This document shows, piece after piece, positions 1 through 24,504 of a stretch of 64,000 bases of DNA. Source of the stretch: an uncultured Gemmatimonadaceae bacterium (GTDB taxonomy: Bacteria > Gemmatimonadota > Gemmatimonadetes > Gemmatimonadales > Gemmatimonadaceae); assembly GCA_963822945.1 (NCBI GenBank), contig CAWGJO010000026.1, positions 1 to 64,000 of the forward strand, read 5' to 3'. Within the stretch, counting starts at the first letter, position 1. Each line of letters begins with the position of its first letter. The notes beneath the pieces were generated by a model. It did not search any database and had not been told where the DNA came from. It saw nothing but the letters and a program-made list of their open reading frames with translations. Both the position numbers and the translations under genes were made by a program.

Positions 1-1
1 G

Positions 2-256: not shown

Positions 257-274
257 CGGTTCACGCTTCACCAT

Positions 275-2407: not shown

Positions 2408-4196
2408 GGGCGCTCCTCTCTGCGTCGTGCGGCCGCCCGGGATCCGGCGCGGCGCGAGCGCCGCGGCGGCCGTCGGGCGTCGCCGATGCGGCGTCCAGCT
2501 CGTCGTCCGGGGCGGCGCGCAGCGCGGTCAGGACGAGCCGACGCGGGCGTCGAGAGCCGAGCTCCTCGAGGCGTCACGCCGGCCGTCCAGCGCCGTCCGC
2601 CGCGCGGTCGCGGCTGCCGAGCAGCAGTCCGGCCAGCGCGCAGGATCTTCGCCGGGCGGCTGAACGCGTCGACCGGGTCGAAGGCGTTCTGGGCGAGAAG
2701 CGATCTCGCGCACGAGCGCGGCGATCTCCAGCGGACAGCGGTCGGCGTCCTCGAGCGCGTCGGGCCCGACCAGGGCCGCGACTTCCCGCAGCTCGCGGTC
2801 CTTCTGCAGCAGGTTCGGTCACCCGGCCCGCGAGCTCCGAGCCCAGTCGGCGCCGAGCCTGATCCGCGAAAGCACGGATCGAGATCACGGCATACAGGCT
2901 GTAGCTCGTCTCCCAGTCGACCGCCGGGAAGTGGCGCTGGTGGGCGAGCGCGGGATCGAGCGCCCACAGCGCGCCGGCACACGCGCAGCGACGGCCTGCG
3001 TGACGGGCTCCGAGAAGTCGCCGCCCGGCGGCGAGACGGCGCTGATGAAGGTCACCGCGCCGCTCGCGCTCGGGCACGCCCAGGCACGCGCACGCGTCCG
3101 GCCCGCTCGTAGAGCTGCCCGAGCCGGTTGCCGAGGTAGGTCGGATATCCCTCCTCGCCCGGCATCTCCTGGAGCCGCGCGCCGATCTCGCGCAGCGCCT
3201 CGGCCCAGCGCGAGAGGCTGTCGGCCATCAGCGCCACGCGGCAGCCCCTGTCGCGGAAGTACTCCGCCGATCGTCATGCCGAGGTAGATGCGACGCTTCG
3301 CGGGCCGCGACCGGCATGTTCGACGTGTTCACGACCAGCACCGTGCGCGTTCCATGATCGAGCCGCCCGGTGCGCGGATCCTCGAGGGCCGGGAACTCCT
3401 CGAGCACCTCGGCCATCTCGTTGCCGCGCTCGCCGCAGCCGACGTAGACGACCACGTCCGCCTCGGCGTAGCGGCCAGCGACTGTTCGATGACGGTCTTG
3501 CCGGTGCCGAAGCCGCCGGGCACGGCGACGGTGCCCCCCTCCGCGACGGGGAACAGGAAGTCGAACACGCGCTGGCCGGTGACGAACGGCCGGTCGGCCG
3601 CAGCCGTTCGGCGAGCGGCCGCGGGCGATGCGCACCGGCCAGCGGTGCGAGAGGTCGAGCGGCGTGCCGTCGTCGAGTTCGCCGATCGCGTCACCCACGT
3701 GGTACGAGCCGGTCGCGACGCTGCGCCACGCGTCCCCGAACGCCGGGCGGCACCAGCACCTGGTGGGTGAAGCCGAGGCGCTCCGGGACCGTGCCGAGCA
3801 CGTCGCCGGGGCTCACCTCCGCGCCCGCCTCGCGACGGTGGCCGTGAACGCCCAGAGGTCGCCGGGGTCGAGCGTGTCGGCCGCCGCGCCCGGTCCGATG
3901 AAATCGCCGGTGGCCTCGGCAACGACGCGCCAGGGGGCGGCCCACGCCGTCGAGCACCGCGCCCAGCAGGCCGGGCCCGAGCTGCGCCGTGAGCGGGTGC
4001 CCGAGAACTCCACCGGCGCGCCCAGGCGCAGGCCGGTGGTGTCCTCGTACACCTGCAAGGTGGCCAGCTCACCTCGCACCCGGACCACCTCGGCGAGCAG
4101 CCGGTGCTCGCCCACGTAGGCCAGTTCGTACAACGCGGGGGCGCAGGGGCGGGCCTCCACCAGCGCGCCGGCAATGCGCGTGACGGCCGCGCTCAT
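2404..4196 (-). CDS. ntpA: V/A-type ATP synthase subunit A, multiply frameshifted
   Basis: QVYEDTTGL, Walker [74 protein letters not shown] in different frames. Confidence 0.85.
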
Positions 4197-4522
4197 TGGA
4201 GCCTCACGCGATAGCCGATCGCGCGGCGCAGCAGGTCGAGAATGTACGCCTCGGCCCGATCGGTGGCGGCGCCCCACGCCGCGCGGGGCACGGGCACGAC
4301 GATGGGGAGCGCGCGATCTTCCAACTCGCGCTGGAGCGCGGCGGGGAAGGCTTCGAACAGCGGTTGTTCCACGAGCAGGATGCCCAGATCCGGTTCCCCG
4401 ATCAGCGCGCTCACACGCTCCGCCGCCGCGGCCGCATCTTCCACCTCGTCGGCGGGCAGGCCGGCCAGCCGGAGCCCCGTGGCCAGCGCAGGGGTGGCAA
4501 CGGCGCGTACGCGGTAGCTCAC
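4193..4522 (-). CDS. ntpF: V/A-type ATP synthase subunit F
   Basis: GTG at 4522 overlaps the subunit C stop; ATGLRLAG, DLGILLV, PIVVPVP and LLRRAIG motifs; 109 aa. Confidence 0.85.
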   Translation of the reverse strand: MSYRVRAVATPALATGLRLAGLPADEVEDAAAAAERVSALIGEPDLGILLVEQPLFEAFPAALQRELEDRALPIVVPVPRAAWGAATDRAEAYILDLLRRAIGYRVRLQ

Positions 4523-5532
4523 GCGGCCTCCTCCAACTCGCGCAGACGCACGGTGGCGGGAACGCCGAGCGAGACCTGCCAGAGAATGCGCTGCAGGGCC
4601 CGGTGCTCGGCCCGCAGCCGCATCACGTACAGCAGCACCGGCGCGAGACTGAGTGGCTCCCGTCGCGCCATCATCCGGTACTCGGCGATGAGGGCCATCA
4701 GTGCCGCGTCGTCCGGGGCGCGGGTGGCGGGAACCAGCGCCACGGCCAGCGGGGTGCCGGCCACGCGCGCCTGCAGACGAGCACGCAGCGGTTCGGCGCT
4801 GCCGGCATCGGCCGCGAACCGCAGGTCGTCGAGGGTGAGGACGGCGCCGCCGGGCACGAACAGCGCCTCGGGCTCGGCGTCCGACCGCTGCTCGGCGAGG
4901 AGCCGTGCCGCCCACACGTTGACGAAGTCGACCGTGCGCTCCACGTAGTGGCGCAGGGCGCGGTCGCCCGCCCGCGCGGCGCGGGTGGCCCGCACCGACC
5001 AGGCCGCGACCACCGCCTGGTCGAGCGAGAACAGATCCAGCCGTTCGCGCCGCGCCTGCTCCGCCACCACGTCGGCGAACGGGTGGCGCAGGGCCAGCAG
5101 GGCCGCCCCGATGGCCCCGACGTCGTTGAGGAGCGACAACTCGTCCAGCGCGCGCGCGGGCAGCGCCGCCGTCGGGATGAGGCCCATGGTGCGCAGCGCG
5201 GGATCGATGCCGCCGAGTGCGCCGCGTACCAGGGCGCGGATGGAACGGCGGTCCTCGTCTTCGATGAGCGGCACCAGCACGTCCTCGCAGTCGCGGCTCC
5301 AGTGTTCGAGCACGTCGAAGCGGCGCGCCGTCACGCGGCGCAGGGCACGCTCGATGGCGCGTTCGTCCGGAGGCGGGGCGTTGGGCGCGAACGCCAGGTA
5401 GCCGATGCGCACCAGCCCGTCGGAGAACGCGCGCCGGTCTTCCGACGCCGCCAGCGTCCGGAGCGTCTGCTGCGGAAGGAGATGTCCGGCGAGTCCCCGG
5501 GCGCGGGCCACGAGCGGTCCCCAGGCGTTCAT
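4519..5532 (-). CDS. ntpC: V/A-type ATP synthase subunit C (V0 d-like)
   Basis: 337 aa helical ORF between E and F; N-terminal ARARGL..HLL and C-terminal LRAEHRALQRIL pattern. Confidence 0.75.
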   Translation of the reverse strand: MNAWGPLVARARGLAGHLLPQQTLRTLAASEDRRAFSDGLVRIGYLAFAPNAPPPDERAIERALRRVTARRFDVLEHWSRDCEDVLVPLIEDEDRRSIRALVRGALGGIDPALRTMGLIPTAALPARALDELSLLNDVGAIGAALLALRHPFADVVAEQARRERLDLFSLDQAVVAAWSVRATRAARAGDRALRHYVERTVDFVNVWAARLLAEQRSDAEPEALFVPGGAVLTLDDLRFAADAGSAEPLRARLQARVAGTPLAVALVPATRAPDDAALMALIAEYRMMARREPLSLAPVLLYVMRLRAEHRALQRILWQVSLGVPATVRLRELEEAA

Positions 5533-6129
5533 GGCGCCGTCCCCTCGATGGCCCGCACGGCCTCGATGGCGAGCGTGGGCCGCAGTCGCCGCAGGCGCGC
5601 GACCAGGGTGGCGTCCACGCGCACGGTGCGCGCCGCGTTCTCCAGGATCGCCCCGGTGGCGACCGCCTCGTCATCTTCGATCGGCGTGTCGGGGCGGCCC
5701 GCCGCGGCGAGGGCGTCGCGCACCGCGCTCTCGCAGGGCGGGGCGGCAGCGCGCGCGCGCGTCCTCGTCGGCCAGGAAGGGCAGGGCCTCCGCGAACAGC
5801 GGCGTGAGGCGTGCCGCCAGGTCGGGCGTGCCGGCCAATGCCTCCAGCCGTCGCTCTGCCTCGTCGAACACGCGTGTGACGAACGTCGCGCGCGCCGTGA
5901 GCACTTCGCGCACGGTGCTCTGCGCCGCACGTGCCCGCTCCGCCTCGCGTTGACGGGCGAGGACGCGTGCCTGCTCGCCGAGCGTGGTGGTCCGCCGGCG
6001 CGTGCGTTGCGCCTCGGCGGTCTCGCGAATGCGCGTCGCCTCGGCGCGCGCCTGCGCCTCGCGCTCGGCGATGGCGGCCGCGGCTTCCTGCCCGAGCTGC
6101 GCGAGCAACGGGCCGGCGTCGGCCGGCAT
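5529..6129 (-). CDS. ntpE: V/A-type ATP synthase subunit E (one frameshift near 5735)
   Basis: N-terminal coiled coil (ORF 5671..6129) joins C-terminal GAILENAARTVRVDATLVARL (ORF 5529..5930); operon position. Confidence 0.75.
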
Positions 6130-6132
6130 GGC

Positions 6133-6357
6133 CTAGGCTCCGCCCGCCCGCAGAATGATCAGCACGGCGACGATGAATCCGAGAATGACCATCGTCTCGG
6201 GAATGGCGACGAGCACGATGATCGTGCCGGCGAGTTCGGGCTTCTCGGCAAGCGCCGCGGCGCCGGCCGTGCCGATCTTCGACTGCGCCCAGGCAGTGGC
6301 CAGGGCGGCGATGCCGAGTACCGCGGCGGCGCTGATCACGATCCACATCATGTTCAT
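6133..6357 (-). CDS. ntpK: V/A-type ATP synthase proteolipid subunit K/c (single hairpin, 74 aa)
   Basis: MNMMWIV...WAQSKIGTAGAAALAEKPE...AIPETMVILGF, with ion-binding Glu; ATG overlaps the subunit I stop. Confidence 0.9.
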   Translation of the reverse strand: MNMMWIVISAAAVLGIAALATAWAQSKIGTAGAAALAEKPELAGTIIVLVAIPETMVILGFIVAVLIILRAGGA

Positions 6358-8259
6358 GACGGTTTCCTCGACGATTCGGGAATTGGCGAAGCCGGGCGAT
6401 GCCCGAACGGTTCGTACGGACGCCCGCCCGGGCTGTAGAACTTCCCAAAGAACTCCACGTAGTGGAGACGGAGCGCGTGAATGGCCGGGCTGAACAGCCC
6501 GATGGCGAAATTCACGAGGTGGAACAACAGCGCGAACACGAGCCCCACCAGCGTGCTGCCCACGGCGCCCACCATCTGGTTGGCCACCACGGCGAGCATC
6601 ACCGAGGCGGTGCCGATGGCCATGATACGGGCGTACGACAGCACGTTGCCCAGCGTGGACAGCAACTCCACCGGCGCGATCAGTCCCTCGGCGAACACGA
6701 GCACGGGGAAGATCACCAGCAACGCCACGACGGCCGGCGTGAACAGCCGGGAGGGCAGCACTTCGAACGCGGCCAGCAGCGCGCCGACCACGAGCAGCAC
6801 CATCAGCGCCGACACGCCGCTGCCCAGCGCGTGCCTGGGCTCCTTGCGGATGGCGGTGATGGCCCCGAGCACCAGGCCGAGTACCACGTGCGCCACGCCC
6901 ACACCCACCGCGAGCGCGAGGGTGGCGAAGACGGCGGTTTCGCGATTGAAGATGATCGGATGGATCCCGAGCAGTCGTGTGCCGAGGTCTCCGAAGTACT
7001 CGCCGAACAACACGCCGAAGATGATCGCGAACGCGGCGCACGGCCCCGCGATCTCGGCGGCGGTGCGGAGCAGCGACCCGGGTTTCGCCTTCGCGTGCAC
7101 CAGCAGCGCCAGTCCGCCCAACACCACGCCGTACCCCACGTCGCCCAGCATCATCCCGAAGATCAACGGGAAGAACACCGCCACGAACGGGGTGGGATCG
7201 ATGGTCCCGTACCTGGGCAGCGGCAGCAGCGCGATGAGCTTCTCGAACGGGCGGAAGAGCCGCGGGTTCGACAGCACCACCGGCGGGTCCTCCTCTCCCC
7301 ATTCTTCGTGGGCCACCGTCTCGACGATCACCGTGGAACCCGCCGCGGCGGTCACGCGCCGCGCCAATTCACCCACGCTGCGCTCGGGCAGCCAGCCCTC
7401 GATGGCGAAGGCGAATCGCGTCATCGCCGCCCGCTCGTGCGCGTGCACGGCGGCCAGCCAGTCCTCGATGGCGGCGCGGGCGTGGCGCAGCTCCGGCCCG
7501 CGCTCCACCGCCAGCTCCTTCCGCTTGCGGGCGCAGGCGTCCAGTTCCACGGGAATCTCGAACAGCCGCGCCAGCATCTTCGGTACGGCCTGCTCGAGGG
7601 GCACGTCGCGATACCCCTCCGGCAGGGGCACCTCGGGCACGCGCGCTTCCGCCAGCTGCGCGTCGAGCTTCTCGCTGAACTCGCGCGGCAACACGAGCAG
7701 GATCGCCATGTCGCCGCCCGGGAGTTCGTGCGTGGTCATCGTGAAGGCGGCCCCCAACTGCTCGCGCAGCGCGCCGGCGAGCGCGTCCACCGTGGGGCGG
7801 GCCGACGCGGGCACGACCACGGCGTGACTGGTGAGCCTCGGCGAGCCCGCCACCTTGCGCACGGCCGGCAGGATGGCCGACAGGAAGTCGCGATACCGCG
7901 TGATGAGGGCCCGTTCCTCGCCCAACGCCGACTCGCGTTGACGCAGACGCGCGCGCGTCGCGGGCCGACCGGTTGGCCAGCCGCGCCCACCGCGCGAAGT
8001 CGTCGACCGTGGCGGCGCTCGTCGTGCCGGTGGTGCCGGTCACGTCGAGCAGCCGCATCGCCTCATCGATTTCCTCGAGGACGCGCGTGAGCTGACCGCG
8101 GCGCCGCTCGGTATCGGGCTCCAGCCGTGCGGCCGCCACGCCGGCGCGCGGCGGCGCCTCGGCCAACTGCAGCTGGCCGAAGTCCTGCACCGCGCCGAGG
8201 GCGGCGTCGAACCGGTCCTTCGGTCCGAGCACCCGCACCTTGGCCATGGGGATGATCAT
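6354..8259 (-). CDS. ntpI: V/A-type ATP synthase subunit I (frameshift near 7930-7960)
   Basis: MIIPMAKVRVLG start; EGWLP, PRYGTIDPTP, FGMMLGDVGYG, essential Arg in NVLSYARIMA, LRLHYVEFFGKFY. Confidence 0.9.
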
Positions 8260-8615
8260 GGGTCGGCGACGGGCGCCACCATGGCAGCCAGGCGTTCGGC
8301 GATCTCGGCGATCCGCGCGTCGTCGGCTTCGGCATACAGCACGCGCCGCCGCTCGGCCTCGTCGCGAATGGCCTGCGCATCCGCCTCCCGCTGTTCGGCG
8401 GCCTGCAGGTCGAGCAGGCGCAACGTCTCCTGCAATTCCCGTTCGGCCTTCTCATCGGCCGCGTGCGCCGCGGCACGTGCTTCGTGCACCAGCCGCTCGG
8501 CGTCGCGCTCGGCCTGCTGCAGGCTGGCCGTGACCGCGCGTTCCGCGTCGAGCAGCGCATCGAGGGCCGATGCCTCGGTGCCGACGGGCGTGTGTCGTTT
8601 CCTGGCGGTGACCAT
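8256..8615 (-). CDS. V/A-type ATP synthase subunit H/G (peripheral stalk)
   Basis: Charged coiled-coil ORF heading the operon; probable ATG at 8615 after GGGGGA (ORF track extends to 8699). Confidence 0.65.
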   Translation of the reverse strand: MVTARKRHTPVGTEASALDALLDAERAVTASLQQAERDAERLVHEARAAAHAADEKAERELQETLRLLDLQAAEQREADAQAIRDEAERRRVLYAEADDARIAEIAERLAAMVAPVADP

Positions 8616-8784
8616 GTCCGGTTCCCCCTGCGTTTCGGGCTCCGCTGCGGGGACAGAACCACGCTCTGTAGTTACCGGCGCACGGAGGGGGGCCTGCATC
8701 GGGAGTGTACCACCAAACAGTCGGGGTTTCGCCGACCGGCTGGGCGCAGGCGGATCGCGTCCGGGCGGGCGCGGCGCCCGGGAG

Positions 8785-9186
8785 TCAGTTGACGCCTGAC
8801 GACCTGACGATTGCGGCCCGGGTTGCCAGCCGCCGAATGGCGGCGCCGATGGCCGCCATCCGGGACGCCGACATCATCATGAATCCGGAATGGGCGCGGG
8901 GGCGCGACGAGCGGATGACGGCCGACGTGTCGGGTGCCACGTAGACGATGGCGTAGTGCGTGCCCCAGCTGGTGCTTGCCGGCACGACGCCCGTCGGCGC
9001 GGCGGCGTACCGCGTGTGCGTGCGCCACGCGATCCAGTACGCACGATCGCTGAGCGTGGCGGTCGGGATCCCCGCCCGCCCCGTGCGCGACCGGGCGGAC
9101 GTCGAGTGGAGCCGGGCGACCGATGTTCCGAGCCCGGTCACGCCCGTGGCGTCGATGCCTCCGTGGCCCCTGCCGACGGCGTTCAT
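8785..9186 (-). CDS. Hypothetical protein (133 aa)
   Basis: ATG overlaps the crotonase stop (ATGA); GC-rich third positions; no family recognised. Confidence 0.4.
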   Translation of the reverse strand: MNAVGRGHGGIDATGVTGLGTSVARLHSTSARSRTGRAGIPTATLSDRAYWIAWRTHTRYAAAPTGVVPASTSWGTHYAIVYVAPDTSAVIRSSRPRAHSGFMMMSASRMAAIGAAIRRLATRAAIVRSSGVN

Positions 9187-10025
9187 CCCTCGCCCTCGAA
9201 TGCGGGGGCGCGCTTGCCGAAGAACGCACTCAGCCCCTCCGCGAAGTCGTGGCCGTCGGCGGAGCGCGCCAGGTGCTGCAGTTCCTCGTCCAGGTGGTAG
9301 TCGAGTTGCTCCACGCCCGCGGCCTGGTTGATGAGGCGCTTGGCCACGGCGTATGCCGCCGTGGGGCCGGCGGCGAGACGCTGGGCCACGGCCATCACAT
9401 CGGCCGCGAAGGTGTCGCGCGGGAATACGTCGTTGACGAGGCGCATGTCCTTGGCTTCGGCCGCCGACAGGCGCGGGTTGAGCAGTACGAGCCCCATTGC
9501 CATGCGCAGGCCCAGCAGCCGGGGCAGGAAGAAGGTGGAGCTCTCGGCTCCCGTGAGCCCCGTCTTGTGGTAGGCCCATTCGAACGTGGCGTCGTCCGAG
9601 GCGAACACGAGGTCGCAGGCCATGGCGATGCCGAACCCGCCCGCCGCCGCCACGCCGTCCACCGCGGCGATGAACGGCTTGGGGGCGCGCTTGATCTCCG
9701 AGATCGTGCTGTGCAGGTACTCGAGAATCTCCTTGAATCCCTCGCCGAATCCCGGGGGTTCGGCCGTTCCCTCGGGGCGGAGGTATCCGAAGTCCTCCTG
9801 CGAACCCTGGGCCCGGATGTACTTGAGGTCGGCGCCGCTGCAGAAGATGCCGTTGGTGCCGCGCACGATCACGCAGCGCACCTCCTTGTCGCGCGCCAGC
9901 TGCAGGCCGGCCTTCCGGAAGTCGCGGGCCGTTTCCACGTCCATGGAGTTGAAGCGCGCAGGGCGATCGATCACCAACTGCCCCACGGCCCCGTCGCGTT
10001 CGATGTGGATGTGTTCCATGGCCAT
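9183..10025 (-). CDS. Enoyl-CoA hydratase/isomerase (crotonase) family protein, possibly HypX C-domain-like
   Basis: IDRPARFNSM, FCSGADL, PKPFIAAVDGVAAAGG, AYHKTGLTGAESSTFFLPRLLG, DFAEGLSAFFGKRAPAF; starts 11 bp after hypE. Confidence 0.9.
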   Translation of the reverse strand: MAMEHIHIERDGAVGQLVIDRPARFNSMDVETARDFRKAGLQLARDKEVRCVIVRGTNGIFCSGADLKYIRAQGSQEDFGYLRPEGTAEPPGFGEGFKEILEYLHSTISEIKRAPKPFIAAVDGVAAAGGFGIAMACDLVFASDDATFEWAYHKTGLTGAESSTFFLPRLLGLRMAMGLVLLNPRLSAAEAKDMRLVNDVFPRDTFAADVMAVAQRLAAGPTAAYAVAKRLINQAAGVEQLDYHLDEELQHLARSADGHDFAEGLSAFFGKRAPAFEGEG

Positions 10026-10036
10026 GGCGGCTGCCC

Positions 10037-11110
10037 TCAGCAGATGCGCGGCAGCAGTTCGCCCTCGTACTCCGAGAGCAGCCGCTTGCCGAGCCCGGTG
10101 TCGAGCACCACGTCGCCGGGCCGCGTCGCCACGCACTCGCCGATCAGTGTCGCGTGCTCGCCGTGCGGATGCCGGCGCAGCGCCTCGAGCACGGCCTCCA
10201 CGGTCGCGTCGTCGCCGCGCACGCCGAGCACGGCCTTGCCCTCGTTGGCCACGTGCAGGGGATCCAGTCCCAGCATCTCGGCGGCCGCGGCCACCACCGG
10301 ATTCACCGGCACGTCCGCCTCGCGAACCAGGATGCCGACGTGCGCCTTCTCCGCCATCTCGTGCAGCGCGCTGGAGAGGCCGCCGCGCGTGGGGTCCTTC
10401 ATCGCCACCACGGCGCCGGGCCGCGCACGGAGCGCGTCGCGGATCATGTGGTTGAGCGGCGCGACGTCGGACTTCAGTTCGGCGTCGATCTGCAGCCGGT
10501 GGCGGTGCACCATGAGCGCCATGCCGTGGTCGCCCACGTTGCCGGTGACGATGATCCGGTCGCCCACCTGCAGCCCGGAATCGCGCACGATGGAGTCGGC
10601 CATCGCCACGCCCGTGGTATTGATGACCACGCCGTCCAACTCCCCGCGTCCCATCACCTTCGTGTCACCCGTGACCACGGTGGTCCCCGCTTCGCGGCAG
10701 GTGTCGAACATCGACTGCTGCACGCGTTCCAGGTCGGGGAAGGTGAATCCCTCCTCGACGATCAGCGCGCAGGTGAGCCCCATCGGCTCGGTGGCGCCCA
10801 TCATCGCCAGGTCGTTCACGGTGCCGGCAATCGCCAGCCGGCCGATGTCGCCGCCGGGGAAGAACGCCGGCTGCACCACGTGCGAGTCGGTGGTGACGAT
10901 CAGCCACCGGTCGCCCACGCGGAGCGCCGCGCCGTCGTCCATGGCCGCGATGCCGAAGCCGTCCACTTCCACGTCCACGAACCCGCGGGTGAGCGTCTCC
11001 TGGATCAGGCGGCGCATGGCGCGGCCCCCCGCGCCGTGCTTCATCACGATCGTCGGATCGCGGCGGCCGGAATGGAGGCGAACGGCCTCCTCGTTGATCG
11101 TGGTGGTCAT
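10037..11110 (-). CDS. hypE: Hydrogenase maturation carbamoyl dehydratase HypE
   Basis: HGAGG, TTDSHVV.P.FFPGGDIG, NDLAMMGA, GDTKV, DPTRGG, ANEG, C-terminal PRIC. Confidence 0.95.
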   Translation of the reverse strand: MTTTINEEAVRLHSGRRDPTIVMKHGAGGRAMRRLIQETLTRGFVDVEVDGFGIAAMDDGAALRVGDRWLIVTTDSHVVQPAFFPGGDIGRLAIAGTVNDLAMMGATEPMGLTCALIVEEGFTFPDLERVQQSMFDTCREAGTTVVTGDTKVMGRGELDGVVINTTGVAMADSIVRDSGLQVGDRIIVTGNVGDHGMALMVHRHRLQIDAELKSDVAPLNHMIRDALRARPGAVVAMKDPTRGGLSSALHEMAEKAHVGILVREADVPVNPVVAAAAEMLGLDPLHVANEGKAVLGVRGDDATVEAVLEALRRHPHGEHATLIGECVATRPGDVVLDTGLGKRLLSEYEGELLPRIC

Positions 11111-12255
11111 AGCTTCGGGTGCCCTCCGTACTGGTGCCAGATGCGGCAGGTGCCCTCGCTGCTCACCATGCAGGCGCCCACCGGCGCGTCGGGCACGCAC
11201 TCCTTGCCGAACAGCGTGCACTTCTCGGGAGACGAGATGCCGGCCATGATGTCGCCGCAGATGCAGAGTTGCGTGAGCGCGGCGGGCGCCTGCGTCCAGA
11301 GGCGCTTGAGGTCGATGGTGAAGTGCCGGCGCGCGTCGAACCGCGCGAACTCGTCGCGCAGGCGCAGGTTCCCGTTGGGCACGTGCGCGATGCCGCGCCA
11401 GTTGCCGCCCGTGGTGCGGAACACGCGCCAGAGCTGCTCCTGCGCCACGCGGTTGCCTTCCTTCGTCACGCAGCGCGGGAAGGCGTTCACCACTTCGTGG
11501 CGGTCGTCGCGAATGAGTTCCACGAGCTGGGCCAGTCCGGCGAGGATGTCCAGCGGCTCGAACCCGGCGACGACCACGGGAATCCCGTGCCGCTCCACGA
11601 ACCGCTCGAAGATTCCCCAGCCGGTGATCGTGGCCGCGTGTCCGGCGGCGAGAAAGCCCTCGATACGCGTATCCGGCATCTCGGCCACGATCTCCATGAC
11701 CGGCGGGATGTACTTGTGCGCCGAGAGCACGAAGAAGTTCGGCGGTGGATCCGCCACGAGGATGGCGGCGGTCGCCACGGCCGTGGTCTCGAATCCGCTG
11801 GCGAAGAACACCACAGGCTCGTTGGTGTCGCGCGCGATCTCCACCGCCTGCGCCGCGCTGTACACCACGTCCACGTTCGCGCCCATCGACTGCGTCTCGG
11901 CCAGCGAGCGCACCGTGCCGGGCACGCGCAGCATGTCGCCGTACGTCACCACCCGCACGCCGTCCTCGGCCAGCACCACGGCCTCGTCCACCTCGGGCAG
12001 GTCGGTCACGCACACCGGACACCCCGGGCCCATGATCACGTCCAACGCCGCTGGAAAGGTTTGCCGGAGGCCGAACTTGGCGATCGCCTGTTCGTGGCTG
12101 CCGCACACGTGCATCACGGTCACCGGGGCGCGGCCGATCTGGTCGCACATCTGTCCGATGGCAGCGGCCAGTTCGTGGGCGCGGGCTGGATCGCGGAACT
12201 TGAGTTCGTCGGCCCCTTTGGGACGGGCGACGCCGGCCCCGACGCCCTCAGGCAT
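11107..12255 (-). CDS. hypD: Hydrogenase maturation protein HypD
   Basis: VCGSH, GPGCPVC, GFETT, VAGFEPLD and C-terminal Fe-S Cys with CMVSSEGTC. Confidence 0.95.
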   Translation of the reverse strand: MPEGVGAGVARPKGADELKFRDPARAHELAAAIGQMCDQIGRAPVTVMHVCGSHEQAIAKFGLRQTFPAALDVIMGPGCPVCVTDLPEVDEAVVLAEDGVRVVTYGDMLRVPGTVRSLAETQSMGANVDVVYSAAQAVEIARDTNEPVVFFASGFETTAVATAAILVADPPPNFFVLSAHKYIPPVMEIVAEMPDTRIEGFLAAGHAATITGWGIFERFVERHGIPVVVAGFEPLDILAGLAQLVELIRDDRHEVVNAFPRCVTKEGNRVAQEQLWRVFRTTGGNWRGIAHVPNGNLRLRDEFARFDARRHFTIDLKRLWTQAPAALTQLCICGDIMAGISSPEKCTLFGKECVPDAPVGACMVSSEGTCRIWHQYGGHPKL

Positions 12256-12569
12256 CGGGGACGCCCCGCGCCGGCGCTGTGGGGTCCGAGGCCGAGGCGC
12301 GCGTGGCGTCGATCTCGCCGCGCACGTCGGCCGCCATCATGTCGTTCTCCGCTTCCCGCAGCAGCAGATCGTAGAGGGCGAGCGTCTCCTCGATCTCGTC
12401 ACTCGGGAATGCGCCGGATGGCGAAGCCCACGTGGTTGAGGATGTAGTCACCCGGCGCCACGGGCTCGTCGATGATGTCGAGCCGCGTCTCACGCCGCAC
12501 GCCGAAGAAGTCCACCTGCGCGATCTGGCCGTTGACCTCGAGAATGCGGCCGGGAACTCCGAGACACAT
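12248..12569 (-). CDS. hypC: Hydrogenase maturation chaperone HypC (one extra base near 12402)
   Basis: GGAGGAG RBS; MCLGVPGRILEV...DFFGVRRE...GDYILNHVGFAI continues after a +1 indel as DEIEETLALY; not recovered intact by the ORF track. Confidence 0.9.
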
Positions 12570-12911
12570 CGCTCCTCCGCGGATGGAGCGGGCCCGTGAC
12601 GGCCCGCACAGTGGACCGAAGCTGGGAAAACCGGAGCGGCCTGTCAGTCAGGGGCTTCGCCTTGGTCGCGTAGGGCTTTTGCCTACGCCTGGTGGGCCCG
12701 TCGCCGGGAGGGGAAGACCGGGACAAGAACGTAAGGGAACGCCGAAAAAAACTCGGGGAAGCACCGACGGTTCCACCCGTTGTGTCTAGGCATGTTCACG
12801 TCGAAGCTAAAGCCCAAACACTTGATGAAATCTCGACGGCAGTACCCATACATCATGTAGCAGTTCCCCCCTTCAATTGAACTCACGCCCCCCCCACGGA
12901 GTGCGGAGAGG
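12570..12911. promoter_or_regulatory. Divergent promoter region between hypC and the first multiheme cytochrome
   Basis: Relatively AT-rich spacer between divergent starts; palindromes TACATCATGTA (12849-12859) and TTCAATTGAA (12872-12881). Confidence 0.5.
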
Positions 12912-14366
12912 ATGGATATGAAAGTCACGATGAATCCGGTTCTGGGACGGTTGACCGCGCTGTTGATCGGAGCGACGGTCGCTGCTTCCTGCACCAGCGA
13001 CAAGATCGTCTATCAGAGCAAACCGAATTTCACGGCGCCGCCCGCGGCCGCCGCGAATTTCGTCGGATACTCCGATACGGTCACCAAGCAGACGGTCTGC
13101 GGTAACTGTCACGTCGACCAGCAGGCCAAGTGGTCGACCACCAAGCACGCCACGGCGTGGGCGGATCTCCAGGCGAGCGGCCACGCCGGCGCCTCCTGCG
13201 AACCCTGCCACACGGTGAATTCCAACGGCAACGCGTCCACCGATACCCTGTCCGGCTTCCTCGCGACCCGGGACGCCCGCTACGAGGACGTCCAGTGCGA
13301 GAGCTGTCACGGCCCGGGCCTCGTGCACGTAACGGCGCCCGGACTCAGCAACCGCCCACTGGCGTCGATCGCCGTCGACACCGGCGCCGCCTTCGGCGAC
13401 GGCTGCGGCGAGTGCCACACCGGCACGCACAACCCGTTCGTGGATGAGTGGGTTCAGACGAAGGGTGCCGGACATGCGCACCTCGAGGCGCATGCGCTCG
13501 GCAACGCGGCTTGCACGAACTGCCATGTCGGCCAGGACGCGCTCGTCGCCTGGGGCGTGAACACCAACTACAAGGAAGCGAGCGAGGAAGCCACGAATCC
13601 AATGGCCATCACCTGCGCGGTCTGCCACGATCCGCACGGTGGGCCGAACACGGCCCAGCTCCGCTATCCCATCGACGTGGCCGATACGTCGGGCAACCTC
13701 TGCATGCGCTGCCACCAGCGTAACGGCAAGCCCGTGGCCCCGGCGAGCAAGTATGCGCCGATGGCTCCCGAAGGCCCCGTCCTGCTCGGCTACGCCGGCT
13801 ACTTCCCGGCCGGCTACACCGGTCCCGACACGATCCTCGGTACGCACGGTTCGTCGGCCAACGCGAAGCTCTGCGTCACCTGCCACATGGGCAAGATGAC
13901 GGTGAACGACTCGGCCGGGGCGTTCGTCACCAGCTACACAGGACACAACTTTGCCGCGGCGCCATGCCTCGACGCCAACGGCGTGCCCACCACCGGCTCC
14001 TGCGACGTGTCGCAGCGGTCGTTCTCGGCCTGCGCGGCGAGCGGCTGCCATGGCACGCCGAGCGCAGCCCGGTCGGCCTTCGTCGCCGTCTCCAGCCGGC
14101 TGGCGCTTCTGGATTCGGCGCTCAACAGCCAGCTGGTCCAGATTCCGGACTCGGTGTACCAGAGCACCACGATGAACTCGGCCATCGGCGCCAAGTTCAA
14201 CCTGCAACTGGCCGAGAAGGCCGGCAGCGAGGTGCACAACCCGTTCCTGATGGAAACGCTGCTGACCAGCAGCATCAGCCAGATCCAGACGGACTACGGG
14301 ATCGCGCCGAAGATCAGCGTGAACCTCGCGAACATTCTTCCGCAGACAGCGGCCAACTACCGCTGA
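12912..14366 (+). CDS. Multiheme c-type cytochrome lipoprotein 1 (8 CxxCH + 1 Cx4CH)
   Basis: Lipobox VAASC; CGNCH, CEPCH, CESCH, CGECH, CTNCH, CAVCH, CMRCH, CVTCH, CAASGCH; c554-like N-terminal part; C-terminal VHNP helix region. Confidence 0.92.
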   Translation: MDMKVTMNPVLGRLTALLIGATVAASCTSDKIVYQSKPNFTAPPAAAANFVGYSDTVTKQTVCGNCHVDQQAKWSTTKHATAWADLQASGHAGASCEPCHTVNSNGNASTDTLSGFLATRDARYEDVQCESCHGPGLVHVTAPGLSNRPLASIAVDTGAAFGDGCGECHTGTHNPFVDEWVQTKGAGHAHLEAHALGNAACTNCHVGQDALVAWGVNTNYKEASEEATNPMAITCAVCHDPHGGPNTAQLRYPIDVADTSGNLCMRCHQRNGKPVAPASKYAPMAPEGPVLLGYAGYFPAGYTGPDTILGTHGSSANAKLCVTCHMGKMTVNDSAGAFVTSYTGHNFAAAPCLDANGVPTTGSCDVSQRSFSACAASGCHGTPSAARSAFVAVSSRLALLDSALNSQLVQIPDSVYQSTTMNSAIGAKFNLQLAEKAGSEVHNPFLMETLLTSSISQIQTDYGIAPKISVNLANILPQTAANYR

Positions 14367-14382
14367 GTAGTGGGGATGGGCG

Positions 14383-14428
14383 GTCGGCAGGGGGCGGAAC
14401 CGGGGTTCTGGTTCCGTCCCCTGTCGAC
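14383..14428 (+). terminator. Stem-loop downstream of cytochrome 1
   Basis: GTCGGCAGGGGGCGGAACC...GGTTCCGTCCCCTGTCGAC inverted repeat followed by GTTT. Confidence 0.55.
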
Positions 14429-14667
14429 GTTTGCGGAGGGTATCGGGTCGTACCCCGAGGGTACCCACGGGCTGGTGCACACGTTAAACACATGACAGGA
14501 CCGTCCGACAATCCCGTACAAAACTCCGGCAACCGCTGACGGTTCCCCCCGGTCCGGAGGCCCACATTCCACCTCGCAGGCAAACGTGAGAACAACAATC
14601 GAAGTCGAGCAGCAGTAGAAGGAGTTTCACGGTTCGAGCCCCACGCCCCCCACGGAGTGCGGAGAAC

Positions 14668-16119
14668 ATGAAAATGAGAGTTCCCAGAAGTCCGGTGCTG
14701 GGGCGGCTGACCGCAGTCTTGATCGCAGCGGTAGTCGCCTCATCGTGTACCAGCGAGAAGATCGTCTACCGGAGCGAACCGAGTTTCACGGCGCCGCCAG
14801 CGGCGGCCGGAGACTTCGTTGGGTACGCGGACACGGCCAGCAAGCAGACCGTGTGTGGTAATTGTCACGTGGACAAGCAGCTTCAGTGGGCCACGACGAA
14901 GCACGCATCGGCGTGGGCCGACCTGCAGGCCAGCGGTCACGCCGGTGCCTCCTGCGAGCCCTGTCACACGATCAGCAAGAACGGCAACGCAGTGACCGTG
15001 GACGACGTGGGCTATACGGCAACGCACGACGCGCGGTACGAAGACGTGCAGTGCGAGAGCTGCCATGGCCCAGGTCTGGCGCACGTCACGTCCCCGGCAC
15101 TGGGGAACCGTCCGCTGGCGTCGATCGCGGTCGACACCGGCGCGGCGTTCGGCGACGGCTGCGGCGAATGCCACAGCGGCACCCATGAGCCGTTCGTCGA
15201 CGAATGGAAGCAGTCGCTGCACGGTGCCATGAACTCGCACGCCATGGGCAACGCCAGCTGCCAGCCCTGCCACACGGCGCAGGGTGCGCTGGCCGCGTTC
15301 AACGTCAACACGGCCTACCTGGAAAAGGATCAGGTGGCGACCAACCCGCTGCCCATCGTCTGCGCGGTGTGCCACGATCCGCACGGCAGCGACAACCCCG
15401 CGCAGCTTCGGTTCCCCATCAACTCGATCGATCCGAACCAGAACCTGTGCATGAAGTGCCACCAGCGGAACGCGACGTACGATCCGTCCAACACGCACGG
15501 TCCGCACTCGCCGGAAGGCCCGCTCCTCATCGGAGAGGCTGGATGGTGGCCGCCGGGCACGCAACTCAATCTGCCCGACACGATCGTCGCCACGCACGGG
15601 ACGACTCGGAATCCGGGGCTGTGCGTCACCTGCCACGTGAACCGGTTCACCGTGACCGATCCGAACACCGGCAACTTTGCCTTCCAGGCAACCGGCCACC
15701 TGTTCGTCGCCATTCCGTGTCTCGACGCGAACGGGCTGCCCACGGTGGACAACACGTGTGACATCTCGCAGCGGTCGTTCAGCGCCTGTACGGCGAGCGG
15801 CTGCCACGGGAGTGGTTCCGTAGCCCAGTCGGCCCTGACGGCCACGCGTGGACGCCTCGCGCTGCTCGATTCGACGCTCGCGGGCCAACTCGCCCAGGTG
15901 GATCCGGCCGAGCTGGCGGTGAGCACCACGCTCACGACGGCCAAGGGCGCGCAGTTCAATCTGCAACTCGCCGAGGAGCCGGGGTCGGTGGTACACAACC
16001 CATTCCTCATCGAGGCGCTGCTGACGGCGAGCATCAACCAGATGCAGAAGGACTATGGTATCGCGCCGCAGGTTGGCGTCAACCTCAACAACATCCTGCC
16101 CACGATGTTCAAGAAGTGA
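14668..16119 (+). CDS. Multiheme c-type cytochrome lipoprotein 2 (paralog; 8 CxxCH + 1 Cx4CH)
   Basis: Lipobox VASSC; CGNCH, CEPCH, CESCH, CGECH, CQPCH, CAVCH, CMKCH, CVTCH, CTASGCH; colinear with 12912..14366. Confidence 0.92.
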   Translation: MKMRVPRSPVLGRLTAVLIAAVVASSCTSEKIVYRSEPSFTAPPAAAGDFVGYADTASKQTVCGNCHVDKQLQWATTKHASAWADLQASGHAGASCEPCHTISKNGNAVTVDDVGYTATHDARYEDVQCESCHGPGLAHVTSPALGNRPLASIAVDTGAAFGDGCGECHSGTHEPFVDEWKQSLHGAMNSHAMGNASCQPCHTAQGALAAFNVNTAYLEKDQVATNPLPIVCAVCHDPHGSDNPAQLRFPINSIDPNQNLCMKCHQRNATYDPSNTHGPHSPEGPLLIGEAGWWPPGTQLNLPDTIVATHGTTRNPGLCVTCHVNRFTVTDPNTGNFAFQATGHLFVAIPCLDANGLPTVDNTCDISQRSFSACTASGCHGSGSVAQSALTATRGRLALLDSTLAGQLAQVDPAELAVSTTLTTAKGAQFNLQLAEEPGSVVHNPFLIEALLTASINQMQKDYGIAPQVGVNLNNILPTMFKK

Positions 16120-16156
16120 TCGGGATGTCGATGGAAGACCTGCAGTAGAACCACTC

Positions 16157-16219
16157 GGTGCGGGCCGGGGACGAACACCTTCCCGGCCCGCACCAGCACC
16201 GGGCCCCATGGCCCGGTGC
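16157..16219 (+). other. Two consecutive GC-rich stem-loops between cytochrome 2 and the porin gene
   Basis: GGTGCGGGCCGGG...CCCGGCCCGCACC and GCACCGGGCC..GGCCCGGTGC; no U-tract. Confidence 0.45.
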
Positions 16220-16315
16220 CGAAGACTCTGAACCGCTGACGCAGTACCGGAGGCGACGATGATCGGGGGCGATCGAGCACACGACGCCATGCTCCATAGA
16301 TCCGTACGGCAGCAG

Positions 16316-17815
16316 ATGTCCCATCGGGGCCGCGGCGTGACGTCGACGGCCCTCGCGCTCGTCGTGCTGGCGTTTTCCACATCGTCCCTGCGCGCGCAGG
16401 GCTACGTCATTCAGGGATCCAGCTTCGCGCAGTTTCTCGACATGCGCCCCCTGGTGACCGACAGCGTCCCCTTCGCCGCCACGGATTCCGTCTCGACCCT
16501 CTTCCGGCGGACGCCGAGCGGCGTGATCACCACCTGCACGACGGGCGATCCGTACTGTTATTTCGTGCGGTCCGCTCCGCGTGCCAACCTCACGGCGCTC
16601 ATGCAGGACGTGGACGTCACGGCGTGGGGACTGCGCCCGGGCCTGAGCGTGCACGCGCAACTGCGCGCCCGCACGGCCGGGGGGGACGCGCGCAGCCTCT
16701 GGCCGCAGGCCAATCAGCATTTCGACGTGCTCGCCGCCTATGCCGAATACGAACGCTCGCCCGTGCTGGCGCGCCTCGGCCGGCAGTGGGTCACGTCGGC
16801 GCTCGGCGTCTTCAACTTCGACGGGGCTTCGGTGACCGTGCGCCCCATCCCGATGCTCGGGCTCAGCGCCTACGGCGGCGGAACGCTCATCCAGGGGCTC
16901 GACCGCCCGCTCGGCGCCGCGGCGCTCTCGCCGGTGGAGGACATCCCGCCCGTGGACAAGTCGTTCCTCGTCGGGGGCACGATGCAGTTCCGGCCCAACG
17001 CAAACGGCGCGGTGCAGGTCCAGTACCAGCGCGAGATCCGCAACGACCGCGGCGCGCTCTACTCCGAGCGGATGGCCGCGACGGCGGAGTTTCGCGCTCG
17101 GTACGCGTCGTTCGGCGGCGAGGCCACCCGCGATCTCGCCACGGAGACGTTCAACGATCTCGGCGCGCACGTCGCGTTCAATCCCTGGCACCGCATCGGC
17201 ACGCGCCTCGAGTACCGGCACTACTCCCCGTATTTCGATCTGTGGACCATCTGGGGGGCCTTCTCCCCCGTGGGCTACAACGAGTTCACCGGGACCATGA
17301 ACTGGGCCACGCCGGGGACGCGGCTCGCACTCGGCCTGTCGGGCGGATACCGCAAGTACGCCGACACCTACACCGGGGTCGCATCGCTGCCGCTCCGGAC
17401 CAGCGGATGGCGCGTCGGCGCCACCGGGTCGCTGCGCGCCACCAACACCTGGACGGTGCAGGGCAGCTACGACATGGACATCAACTTCGGCGCATCGAGC
17501 ACCGATGGCGACGTCGCGATTCGCTGGCAGCCCAGCGACCGCGGCTCGCTGGCGGTGCACGGCACCGCCTTCCAGAACATCTACGAGTTCACCGTGGGCG
17601 AGGGACGCGTCGTCGGCGCCGGCCTGCAGGGGGACTACCGGCTCACGCCCGACCTGCGGCTGGTGGGCGACGCCACGCTCTATCGCCACACCGGCCGGAA
17701 CGAGCCCGATCTGGCCGACTGGAACCAACGGCGCGCCAGCCTCCGGCTCGAATGGCGGGTGGGCGGCGAACCCGGGAGCGGCAACTGGACCGTGGGTCCG
17801 GTGAGGCGGCCATGA
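16316..17815 (+). CDS. Putative outer-membrane beta-barrel (porin of a porin-cytochrome complex)
   Basis: Signal peptide ending LRA-Q; many amphipathic aromatic-ended strands (ARLGRQW, FDGASVTV, LQGDYRL, LRLEWRV); lies between multiheme genes, stop overlaps the next ATG. Confidence 0.75.
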   Translation: MSHRGRGVTSTALALVVLAFSTSSLRAQGYVIQGSSFAQFLDMRPLVTDSVPFAATDSVSTLFRRTPSGVITTCTTGDPYCYFVRSAPRANLTALMQDVDVTAWGLRPGLSVHAQLRARTAGGDARSLWPQANQHFDVLAAYAEYERSPVLARLGRQWVTSALGVFNFDGASVTVRPIPMLGLSAYGGGTLIQGLDRPLGAAALSPVEDIPPVDKSFLVGGTMQFRPNANGAVQVQYQREIRNDRGALYSERMAATAEFRARYASFGGEATRDLATETFNDLGAHVAFNPWHRIGTRLEYRHYSPYFDLWTIWGAFSPVGYNEFTGTMNWATPGTRLALGLSGGYRKYADTYTGVASLPLRTSGWRVGATGSLRATNTWTVQGSYDMDINFGASSTDGDVAIRWQPSDRGSLAVHGTAFQNIYEFTVGEGRVVGAGLQGDYRLTPDLRLVGDATLYRHTGRNEPDLADWNQRRASLRLEWRVGGEPGSGNWTVGPVRRP

Positions 17816-19332
17816 AGATCAGACACCTGCTCATCCCGCTCGTGCTCGCGGTGGCCACCGCGACGCTGGGCACCCAGCAGCCCCGCGGCGCATTCCCGCA
17901 CGCGCGGCATGCCAAGCTCTTTCCCACGTGCGCCGGCTGTCACGCCGGAATCCTCGACGGCGACTCGTCGCGCATGTTCCCCACCGCCGAGGCCTGCGCG
18001 CAGTGCCACAACGGGACCGACGTGCGGCGGGTGGCGTGGACCGGCCACGTGGAGAAGGCCACCAATCTCAAATTCTCGCACACCGAACACGAGATGATGT
18101 CGGCGCAGGGCGGGTCCCCCGCCCAGTGCGTGAATTGCCATGGCCAGCAGGCCGGCCGCGACACCGCGTGGATGCACGTCGCCGGCGCCAATCCCGCCGC
18201 GTGCATCACCTGCCACCGCCACCAGGCGAGCGAACACCTGGCGCCCACGGCGGATTGCGCCACCTGTCACAAGACGCTGGTGCAGGCCACGAGCCTGTCG
18301 GCGGGCGACATCGCCGCGTTCCCGAAGCCGGCCTCGCACAGCGATCCGAACTGGCTGTCCACCCACGCGCCGAAGAACGACGCGCAGGTGGCCCAGTGCG
18401 CCATCTGCCACGCCCGCGAGAGCTGCGAGCGGTGCCACGTGAACGCCGATCAGGTGCCGGCCATCGCGGCGCTCGGGCGTGACACCCGCGTGGCGGCGCT
18501 GGAGCGCGAGATGAAGCCGGCGTACTTCACGCCGGCTTCGCACAAGGCATTCGACTGGGAGTACACGCACGGGCCGTCGGCGCGCACGGAGACGCAGACC
18601 TGCGCCACCTGTCACGCGCGCACGAGCTGCACGACCTGTCACATCGGTACCGCTGGCCAGGACGTGATCAGGAAGCTGCCGGTGCCCGCACCCGGCCGGA
18701 CCCAGGGGGTGCTGCTGGTGCATGCCGCGTCGGTGTCCATCGTGCGGCCCAACCCGACCGCCGGCACGGCGGCGGGGAGCGGCCTGGTGCTGCTGGCGAC
18801 GGCGCGCGATACCGTGCGGTCGACCGCGGTGCACGTCCACCCCGATGGCTTCGCCACCAACCACAAGGACGTCGCGGCCAGTGGACAGCTCAACTGTCAG
18901 GGCTGCCACCAGCCGCGCGACTGCACGGCCTGCCACGACGGCGTTTCGCCCCGGGGCGGCTACCACCCCGCGGACTTCATGTCCCGGCACGCCACGGGCG
19001 CCTACGCGCAGGAGCAGAACTGCAGCAGCTGCCACCGCGTGGAGACCTTCTGCCGCTCATGCCACGAGAAGTCGGGCATCGCCAAAACGGGCGGCGTGCG
19101 AGGCACGGCGCATACGGCGCAGCCGCTCTGGCTGCTGCAGCACGGGCAGGCGGCGCGGCAGGGGCTGTCCTCGTGCACCGCATGCCACCAGCAGCGCGAC
19201 TGCCTGCGCTGCCACTCGAGCCTGGGCCTGCACGTCAACCCGCACGGGCCCGACTTCAATGCGGAGGCCATGGGGTCGCGCAATATGCAGATGTGCCTGG
19301 TGTGCCACCTGACCAATCCGCTGAAGAAGTGA
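17812..19332 (+). CDS. Secreted 16-heme c-type cytochrome
   Basis: ATG at 17812; signal peptide MKIRHLLIPLVLAVATA; 16 CxxCH counted; c3/c7-like FxHxxH motifs. Confidence 0.92.
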   Translation: MKIRHLLIPLVLAVATATLGTQQPRGAFPHARHAKLFPTCAGCHAGILDGDSSRMFPTAEACAQCHNGTDVRRVAWTGHVEKATNLKFSHTEHEMMSAQGGSPAQCVNCHGQQAGRDTAWMHVAGANPAACITCHRHQASEHLAPTADCATCHKTLVQATSLSAGDIAAFPKPASHSDPNWLSTHAPKNDAQVAQCAICHARESCERCHVNADQVPAIAALGRDTRVAALEREMKPAYFTPASHKAFDWEYTHGPSARTETQTCATCHARTSCTTCHIGTAGQDVIRKLPVPAPGRTQGVLLVHAASVSIVRPNPTAGTAAGSGLVLLATARDTVRSTAVHVHPDGFATNHKDVAASGQLNCQGCHQPRDCTACHDGVSPRGGYHPADFMSRHATGAYAQEQNCSSCHRVETFCRSCHEKSGIAKTGGVRGTAHTAQPLWLLQHGQAARQGLSSCTACHQQRDCLRCHSSLGLHVNPHGPDFNAEAMGSRNMQMCLVCHLTNPLKK

Positions 19333-20058: not shown

Positions 20059-20341
20059 GACTGACCTCGGGAGTTGGCTTCGAAAGCTACTCTGACTGCG
20101 CCGCAGTATCGCGGAATCAGGGGGTTTGACGCAGCCGGACCTTTGCCGCGCACGCTGTAAGCATTTCCCCGACGGCACTGTCGGCGCAACCCCCCTTCCT
20201 ATTCAGGAGTTTGCTTCTGTCTGCCTTTCGCGCCGGGCCGGATCATGTACAGACACGAAAGTCTATAGACGCGGCCACCGGGTCGGGGACCCCCTCACCC
20301 GCCGGTTCGCGGACTACCAACCCATCCTAGGGGGTTGTGTC

Positions 20342-21508: not shown

Positions 21509-23198
<1,690 letters not shown>

Positions 23199-23202
<4 letters not shown>

Positions 23203-24501: not shown

Positions 24502-24504
24502 CTC

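Follow-up and report, generated by a model that had tools for sequence, protein, structure and literature searches.

HypX is the sole CO-forming enzyme named in passages of a review (PMC12134894) that bear on the carbon monoxide (CO) ligand of [NiFe]-hydrogenase. In the parts of Muraki 2019 (PMC6802093) on which we draw, Tyr416 and Glu426 of the Aquifex protein are candidate bases for the decarbonylation of formyl-coenzyme A (formyl-CoA). They correspond to Tyr439 and Glu449 in R. eutropha, where mutants are HypX-minus, and a 1:1:1 HypC-HypD-HypX complex is reported. Here we analyse a stretch of 64,000 nucleotides (the window; GenBank contig CAWGJO010000026.1, 70% GC) from a Gemmatimonadaceae metagenome-assembled genome (MAG) that is 88% complete. 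In the window, a hypC-hypD-hypE row is followed by a gene for a stand-alone crotonase, P0001, which resembles the C-terminal crotonase-fold domain of HypX (HypX-C). P0001 is very probably a dedicated [NiFe]-hydrogenase maturation factor. With moderate confidence we favour the reading that it is a formyl-CoA decarbonylase supplying CO to HypCD; the CO ligand would then probably be made by this family in bacteria without HypX. In the literature searched, we came across no account of a HypX-type form that is stand-alone or split, and the passages of PMC12134894 (2025) and PMC2974642 mention none; within that literature, the hyp-linked stand-alone family is undescribed.

A crotonase gene behind hypE

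The four genes lie on the minus strand. Reading from hypC (12569-12399), we find hypD (12255-11107; 382 aa, Pfam HypD E 2e-123, 412.7 bits), hypE (11110-10037; 357 aa, Pfam AIRS and AIRS_C, 46% identity to the annotated HypE of C. necator) and the crotonase gene (10025-9183; 280 aa, Pfam ECH_1 E 7e-46, stop codon 9185-9183). The Pfam matches extend over 12569-12402 for HypC, 12255-11110 for HypD and 11110-10040 for the AIR-synthase-type HypE, and 4 bp are common to hypD and hypE. A preliminary description of this DNA had put the crotonase gene 11 bp after hypE, which is what the stop and start codons give: the hypE TGA occupies 10039-10037, the crotonase ATG 10025-10023, and the spacer 10026-10036. 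The hypX gene of C. necator starts 11 bp after hypE, a gap equal to that of P0001. The Tyr codon at 9570-9572 and the Glu codon at 9543-9545, also taken from that description, are those of Tyr152 and Glu161 in the 280-aa translation, and both residues lie in the segment AYHKTGLTGAESSTFFLPRLLG.

We scanned genomes, one per species, and obtained 32 loci with relatives 66-96% identical to the crotonase. Their hosts are labelled Gemmatimonadota, Vicinamibacteria/Acidobacteriota, Chloroflexi and Rokubacteria MAGs, together with two MAGs labelled Nitrosotalea and Myxococcaceae. The crotonase stands beside hypE sequence at every one of the 32 loci. It comes directly after hypE in 29, among them L024 with a hypE remnant alone; in L019 it sits between hypD and hypE, and in L025 and L028 it comes after a 269-aa formyltransferase gene that follows hypE. 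The gene order around the crotonase is variable, with hypF or hypB on either side and different hydrogenase genes, so that the link amounts to more than synteny shared among close kin. A metagenome scan gave 80 further loci, which were chosen by the peptide patterns FEWAYHK and LTGAESSTF, making motif counts on them circular. Of these, 65 extend at least 400 bp upstream, and hypE or the 269-aa gene lies upstream in 64. Among Gemmatimonadota, HypD is encoded on the same contig within 3 kb of the crotonase in all 15 genomes that carry it. The linkage of homologs to hypCDE that had been anticipated is thus found in genomes, metagenomes and the home phylum alike. At the sole exception, L121 (L121:4965-6590), there are no hyp genes within 5 kb, and the crotonase is followed after 4 bp by the gene of a NicO-family nickel transporter. 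Metagenome contigs scanned with P0137, a distant Glu-bearing relative, yielded no relative, and the haloarchaeal and Streptomyces plasmid hyp clusters that gave the best HypE matches among plasmids hold no crotonase.

Comparison with HypX, PaaG and hydratases

P0001 consists of ECH domains only, in agreement with the earlier claim that it has no formyltransferase domain, and no formyltransferase match was found in the window. Since the formyltransferase domain of HypX (Aquifex His74/Asp80/Asp109) is missing, P0001 is not HypX as that family is defined; it is 280 aa long, against 597 aa for HypX (HoxX), a fusion protein with an N-terminal formyltransferase domain that depends on N10-formyl-tetrahydrofolate and both generates formyl-CoA and decarbonylates it to yield the CO ligand. 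Its active-site residues can nevertheless be placed on those of HypX. Aligned by BLASTP with the HypX of C. necator (P0272, a 597-aa coding sequence of plasmid pHG1 that matches Aquifex HypX, PDB 6J0P, at E 2e-166), P0001 shows 24% identity over 227 aa (E 1e-9), and Tyr152 is paired with Tyr439 and Glu161 with Glu449, the counterparts of Aquifex Tyr416 and Glu426. Comparison of the family alignment with a HypX-C alignment by hhalign (probability 99.2%, E 2.5e-19, 228 columns) puts Tyr on Tyr and Glu on Glu, and MAFFT returns the identical register. In all three alignments a gap of one residue falls between Tyr and Glu, the loop of P0001 being shorter by that residue. With this gap, the proposed equivalence to the HypX catalytic pair stands in these sequence alignments.

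The motif did not arise by chance in this one protein: every one of 120 rank-chosen homologs has both Tyr152 and Glu161, as do 31 of the 32 genome loci, the exception, L033, being a frameshifted assembly. We took the Glu counts on the rank-defined homologs instead of on our 128-member family set, because the latter was selected by a pattern that includes Glu. In at least 127 of those 128 members, 55 positions are conserved, including the oxyanion-hole segments FxxGADL and GxAAAGG and, in this pattern-chosen set, Tyr152/Glu161. The nearest generic crotonases (35-43% identity) read AYxxIGLxPDGSS at the active-site segment. Three residues that P0001 shares with HypX are rare or missing among 109 of them: Glu161 (0%), Ala128 of the oxyanion segment GxAAAGG (1%) and Gly159 (6%). 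Tyr152 occurs in 76% and so is not HypX-specific. In these alignments, the HypX-discriminating residues are Glu161, Ala128 and Gly159; the idea of a HypX-type motif that sets P0001 apart from ordinary crotonases is upheld for the Glu and fails for the Tyr.

Scores and phylogeny both draw the family towards HypX-C. A hidden Markov model (HMM) built from 120 HypX-C sequences gave a median of 64 bits for the family (n=128) versus 39.4 bits for the nearest generic crotonases (n=110); within the genome of the window, it gave 69.2 bits for P0001, 34.3 for a PaaG-like paralog and 22.7 for an ordinary hydratase. We computed a maximum-likelihood (ML) tree (LG+G4) of 13 family rows, 8 HypX-C rows, 30 random generic rows and 5 paralogs from this genome. 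One branch separates the family and HypX-C from the 35 others, with an ultrafast bootstrap (UFBoot) of 100 and a Shimodaira-Hasegawa-like approximate likelihood ratio test (SH-aLRT) value of 97. In a quick tree search, the SH-aLRT was 98 without the two longest paralogs and 93.5 when 22 motif columns were also removed. Judged from sequence, there is good but not conclusive evidence for a single clade made up of the stand-alone family and HypX-C.

Membership of the crotonase superfamily is plain: ECH_1 scores 157 bits versus a cut-off of 27, and the AlphaFold2 (AF2) model (mean predicted local distance difference test, pLDDT, 93.5) has the spiral fold, with Z 29-34 to 50 solved crotonases. For P0001, all NCBIfam models fall short of their cut-offs; oxepin_alt ('oxepin-CoA hydrolase, alternative type') scores best, with 184 of the 300 bits required. 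The PaaG proteins (4fzw_C, 3hrx, 6slb) are the best match in sequence and fold, with 33% identity (3hrx), a similar length and the LPRxxG helix. They differ from P0001 in that Asp136 of PaaG aligns with Ala160, the acidic residue of P0001 standing one position later at Glu161; in an insert of about 15 residues (70-100) in P0001; and in a context of hyp genes, not paa genes. We rejected the PaaG identity on the Asp136 position and on TIGR02280, which gives 154 bits versus a cut-off of 345. Enoyl-CoA hydratases of the ECHS1 type share the Pfam ECH_1 domain, the spiral fold and the oxyanion-hole motifs conserved in P0001. Their two catalytic glutamates (Glu144/Glu164 in rat numbering), in contrast, are not shared: the first aligns with Tyr152 (the hydratase paralog of this genome reads FGQPE where P0001 reads FEWAY), and the second, which we take to be that of the AMExVLTG helix, falls on Gly178 in AMGLVLLN. 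With Tyr152 and Gly178 at the catalytic glutamate positions, the canonical hydratase identity was rejected too. Since these catalytic residues are absent, P0001 is neither PaaG nor hydratase, in line with the preliminary description.

HypD, formyl source and genomic surroundings

We modelled a complex of HypD (25-sequence alignment), the 56-aa HypC and the crotonase (25-sequence alignment). Its interaction prediction scores from aligned errors (ipSAE) were 0.65, 0.77 and 0.72 (median 0.72) versus 0.00 for the best of 3 controls; of 157 solved complexes, 116 attain the mark used, as do 2 of 215 mismatched pairs, a calibration that holds just roughly here because we used our own alignments and three chains. 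At least 60% of contacts were common to the runs, and the partner pLDDT was at least 89. On the crotonase side, the predicted interface takes in residues 37-46, 81-86, 102-110 and 237-250. It holds the family-specific insert (81-86, 102-110) with the invariant Tyr81, Leu82, Tyr103, His105, Ser109 and Glu110. On the HypD side, it comprises Asp85 and Pro87, right after the invariant GPGCPVCVT, plus 182-195 and 272-296. Set against 12 HypDs from crotonase-less Gemmatimonadota, the consensus of the crotonase-linked HypDs departs from theirs at 26 of the 33 interface positions and at 173 of the 327 others, which is to be read as a qualitative sign of co-variation, related genomes not being independent samples. 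Trp320 of HypD lies within an insertion that is absent from 12 of 12 crotonase-less HypDs. The model supports, as a prediction, binding of the crotonase to HypD.

The co-occurrence of the two proteins was followed through 301 Gemmatimonadota genomes, that of the window (G000) included, at a crotonase threshold of E <= 1e-70. The crotonase is found in 15 and HypD in 113, a tally that takes in one unpublished genome, G157, from which we conclude nothing. Against Pfam HypD, the HypDs fall into two score classes, 408-421 bits and 473-525 bits (98 genomes). The genomes of the lower class, to which the hypD of the window belongs, are exactly the 15 with the crotonase (one of these, G278, has its HypD in two fragments, which score 227 and 163 bits), and this class carries the insertion around Trp320. 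Searching the same 301 genomes with HypX gave no match that spans both domains; in 56 of them there are Fmt-like matches only, over HypX residues 22-261 and at no more than 65 bits (the match list takes in the unpublished G097, G057 and G182). In the genome of the window, Pfam Formyl_trans_N matches purN and a frameshifted fmt only, and 0 of 7 ECH_1 matches lie beside a formyltransferase domain. Five crotonase genomes of other lineages likewise contain no full HypX, and the best HypX C-domain match in each is the hyp-linked crotonase. No full HypX thus accompanies the crotonase in the genome of the window or in 19 other crotonase genomes. With HypX in 0 of 301 genomes and 98 HypD genomes holding neither protein, an anticorrelation with HypX cannot be shown in this phylum.

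The 269-aa gene of L025 and L028 may offer a formyl source for part of the family. Its products match Pfam Formyl_trans_N (E 3e-19 and 2e-21), and their best matches are to PurN (TIGR00639 75-77 bits, below the cut-off of 150; 3auf E 2e-13). BLASTP against the N-domain of HypX, which is Fmt-type, found no similarity (E 1.7). Among the 301 Gemmatimonadota genomes, 3 encode this partner, each of them together with the crotonase and with the partner gene directly upstream of it. The gene also precedes the crotonase in 37 of the 65 metagenome loci. We placed 109 of the 112 loci and the window on a crotonase tree, three being dropped as partial or frameshifted matches and 18 rows being unscorable. 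Of the 92 scorable loci, 39 have the partner and 53 do not, which puts the partner with about 40% of the relatives. Its presence changes at least 12 times on the tree, and at least 4 of the changes are forced by well-supported branches. The PurN-type formyltransferase and crotonase of these loci form a two-gene module that shares with the window the crotonase family (66-76% identity), the place after hypE and the Tyr and Glu; the window and its genome differ in having no such formyltransferase gene. Viewed across the family, the route resembles a HypX equivalent spread over two genes more than it does a novel supply of formyl groups. The proposal that formyl-CoA comes from another pathway is needed for the partner-less form only, as in the window. 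At four metagenome loci, a GyrI-like open reading frame (ORF) of 174-180 aa lies between hypE and the crotonase (L072:1887-2408, L074:3355-3876, L119:4459-4998, L123:2196-2735), and one copy reaches Pfam GyrI-like with 26.9 bits versus a cut-off of 26.

The hypC gene of the window is interrupted. Its first 56 codons run to a stop (12399-12569, minus strand; Pfam HupF_HypC E 1e-21), and the conserved C-terminal part, which lies within the intact HypC of relatives, continues in another frame after a one-base insertion (12248-12400, minus strand). Compared with 12 related loci with an intact HypC of 96-106 aa, there is one extra base near 12403 (12399-12405), and every RNA-library contig covering 12403/12404 is one base short there. 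The insertion is probably an assembly indel and possibly a real frameshift. In this clade, about 40 additional conserved residues at the C terminus (EIEETLALYELLLREAENDMMAADVRGEID) bring HypC to a length of 96-106 aa. Elsewhere in the genome, in L003 (G000:C20:281213-284698), the fmt that follows def (~1495-2121 and beyond) has a frame open for 208 aa and is apparently frameshifted; as fmt is essential, this suggests that the MAG has indel errors.

On the plus strand, the window encodes a group 1 membrane-bound [NiFe]-hydrogenase (20126-23975; small subunit, large subunit from ~21511 and cytochrome b, by Pfam), followed by a maturation protease, hypA, hypB and hypF (23962-27798, hypF from ~25450; Pfam HycI, HypA, cobW and HypF domains). 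The large subunit scores 768 bits with PF00374, and its nearest solved relative is the Allochromatium vinosum membrane-bound enzyme (3myr, 711 bits). At 24505-24750, the hypA ORF is just 82 aa long, covers positions 1-69 of a Pfam profile of 112 positions and is overlapped from 24590 by the hypB ORF, possibly a further indel. The stretch 12912-19332, which separates the hypCDE-crotonase operon from the hydrogenase genes, contains three genes for multihaem cytochromes c (484, 483 and ~505 aa, plus strand) and an ORF of 518 aa that matches nothing in Pfam; the closest relatives also have the first two of these cytochromes next to hypC. In this genus, V/A-type ATPase genes follow directly downstream of the crotonase gene: window positions 1-8700 encode subunit I, subunit C/AC39 and part of an A/B subunit, with a 147-aa coiled-coil ORF among them (8259-8699). 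A promoter scan of 8600-13000 found no promoter-like site, and a terminator scan of the same interval found one terminator-like site (plus strand, 12659-12676), no more than shuffles give. In four metatranscriptomic runs from three studies, RNA libraries contain contigs that are 90-99% like the operon and stem from relatives; one of 643 nucleotides (covering 9536-10154) spans the hypE-crotonase junction of a relative.

Candidate roles and proposed mechanism

The preliminary description had proposed that P0001 may be a half of HypX that makes CO. Linkage to hyp genes, the Tyr/Glu alignment, the absence of HypX and the HypD model speak for that view; the specificity of the Tyr and the formyl source proposed for the family do not. 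Further observations weigh against formyl-CoA decarbonylation by P0001. The spacing from Tyr to Glu is 9 residues in P0001 versus 10 in HypX, and a Tyr at this position is common among generic crotonases. The closest solved relatives are PaaG-type isomerases, by sequence (4fzw_C, E 3e-35) and by fold (3hrx, Z 33.8, rmsd, the root-mean-square deviation, 1.5 A over 254 residues), and HypX 6j0p is absent among the matches listed (the best 60 PDB sequence matches, the best 50 of VIA-align and about 30 of Foldseek). The tree samples near relatives and five paralogs of one genome, HypX-C sits on a long branch and the bootstrap is not settled. The complex is a model from unpaired alignments with the crotonase as a monomer, and hypC is frameshifted in this assembly. 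The partner formyltransferase was not found in the window or in its genome (88% complete), the best match being purN at 31 bits, and the genome has no true formyl-CoA transferase (TIGR03253 frc, 145 bits versus 504), oxalyl-CoA decarboxylase and hydroxyacyl-CoA lyase not having been searched for. Of the 113 HypD-bearing Gemmatimonadota genomes, 98 have neither crotonase nor HypX, so the crotonase is not generally required in that phylum. The RNA-library contigs are a weak hint of operon expression, coming as they do from relatives and with DNA carry-over possible. The activity of P0001 is a prediction drawn here from sequence and models.

The hydrogenase also bears on this. CTGC is the standard proximal-cluster motif and CTCC the O2-tolerant, 6-Cys form, and HypX is classically associated with O2-tolerant hydrogenase. 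The small subunit of the window reads CTGC, so that its enzyme is of the standard and not of the O2-tolerant type, and the host phyla differ from those of HypX as well.

Much of the evidence, namely the linkage, the co-occurrence with a class of HypD and the docking model, shows a maturation role and not a reaction, and would suit an accessory enzyme with other chemistry: an acyl-CoA or formyl-CoA hydrolase, another one-carbon producer for HypCD, or a CoA-thioester enzyme that protects or regulates HypCD-bound iron under air. The Tyr-to-Glu spacing, off by one residue from HypX, fits such an enzyme, as do the GyrI-like ORF at the position of the formyltransferase in 4 metagenome loci, the 53 of 92 scorable loci that have no formyltransferase and the lack of an evident formyl-CoA source in the partner and frc searches of this genome. 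However, Glu161, Ala128 and Gly159, near-exclusive to HypX and the family, sit in the active-site segment, the family and HypX-C form one clade in the ML tree, and formyl chemistry is suggested by the formyltransferase gene, which, where found, always immediately precedes the crotonase gene. We regard a different chemistry as fairly unlikely. A non-catalytic partner or scaffold of HypD, keeping the crotonase fold with no substrate turnover, would account for the absence of the canonical hydratase and PaaG catalytic residues and for a confidently modelled interface built from the family-specific insert. It is nonetheless improbable, for the 55 positions conserved in at least 127 of 128 members are a pattern typical of an active enzyme, and a paired formyltransferase gene would be purposeless. 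Annotation as 2-(1,2-epoxy-1,2-dihydrophenyl)acetyl-CoA isomerase or enoyl-CoA hydratase family protein, together with PaaG as the best solved relative, would fit a P0001 that serves the catabolism of fatty acids or aromatics as an ordinary hydratase or PaaG-like isomerase and merely adjoins the hyp genes. This is very hard to reconcile with hyp linkage at 32 of 32 and 64 of 65 loci in several phyla and several gene orders, with no paa genes nearby, with the Ala in place of the PaaG Asp and the low TIGR02280 score, and with a separate PaaG-like paralog that has the Asp (IPD) in the same genome.

If P0001 is the formyl-CoA decarbonylase that we favour, formyl-CoA would be bound in a normal crotonase oxyanion hole, and its formyl proton would be removed, directly or via water, by Tyr152 and Glu161, which correspond to Tyr439 and Glu449 of HypX. 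The thioester would then collapse to CoA-SH and CO, and the CO would pass to the iron held by HypC-HypD, the enzyme being docked on HypD near the GPGCPVC motif. In many relatives, the PurN-type formyltransferase encoded upstream may load the formyl group from N10-formyl-tetrahydrofolate. Because the partner is missing in this genome, formyl-CoA or the formyl group would here have to come from elsewhere. CoA binding, the substrate, CO release and the formyl source are all inferred, and docking on HypD is modelled. A wider account, possible though doubtful, would take the family as the free-living HypX decarbonylase domain. HypX would have arisen by its fusion with an Fmt-type formyltransferase and other lineages would have recruited a PurN-type partner, while the partner-less enzyme would use formyl-CoA of central metabolism, dock on a co-evolved HypD and hand CO to the iron.

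Were the free-living decarbonylase confirmed, there would be a second aerobic route, independent of folate, by which the CO ligand of the [NiFe] site is made, and the delivery of CO to HypCD could be approached directly. The partner-less form raises the testable question of where formyl-CoA originates, and the predicted HypD interface makes the hand-over of CO directly testable. If the reading is true, the decarbonylase step becomes separable from the formyl-transfer step for biochemistry, and the crotonase would be a minimal part for making hydrogenases under air in heterologous hosts. Enzymatic CO supply would then extend to the abundant soil phyla Gemmatimonadota, Acidobacteriota, Chloroflexota and Rokubacteria.

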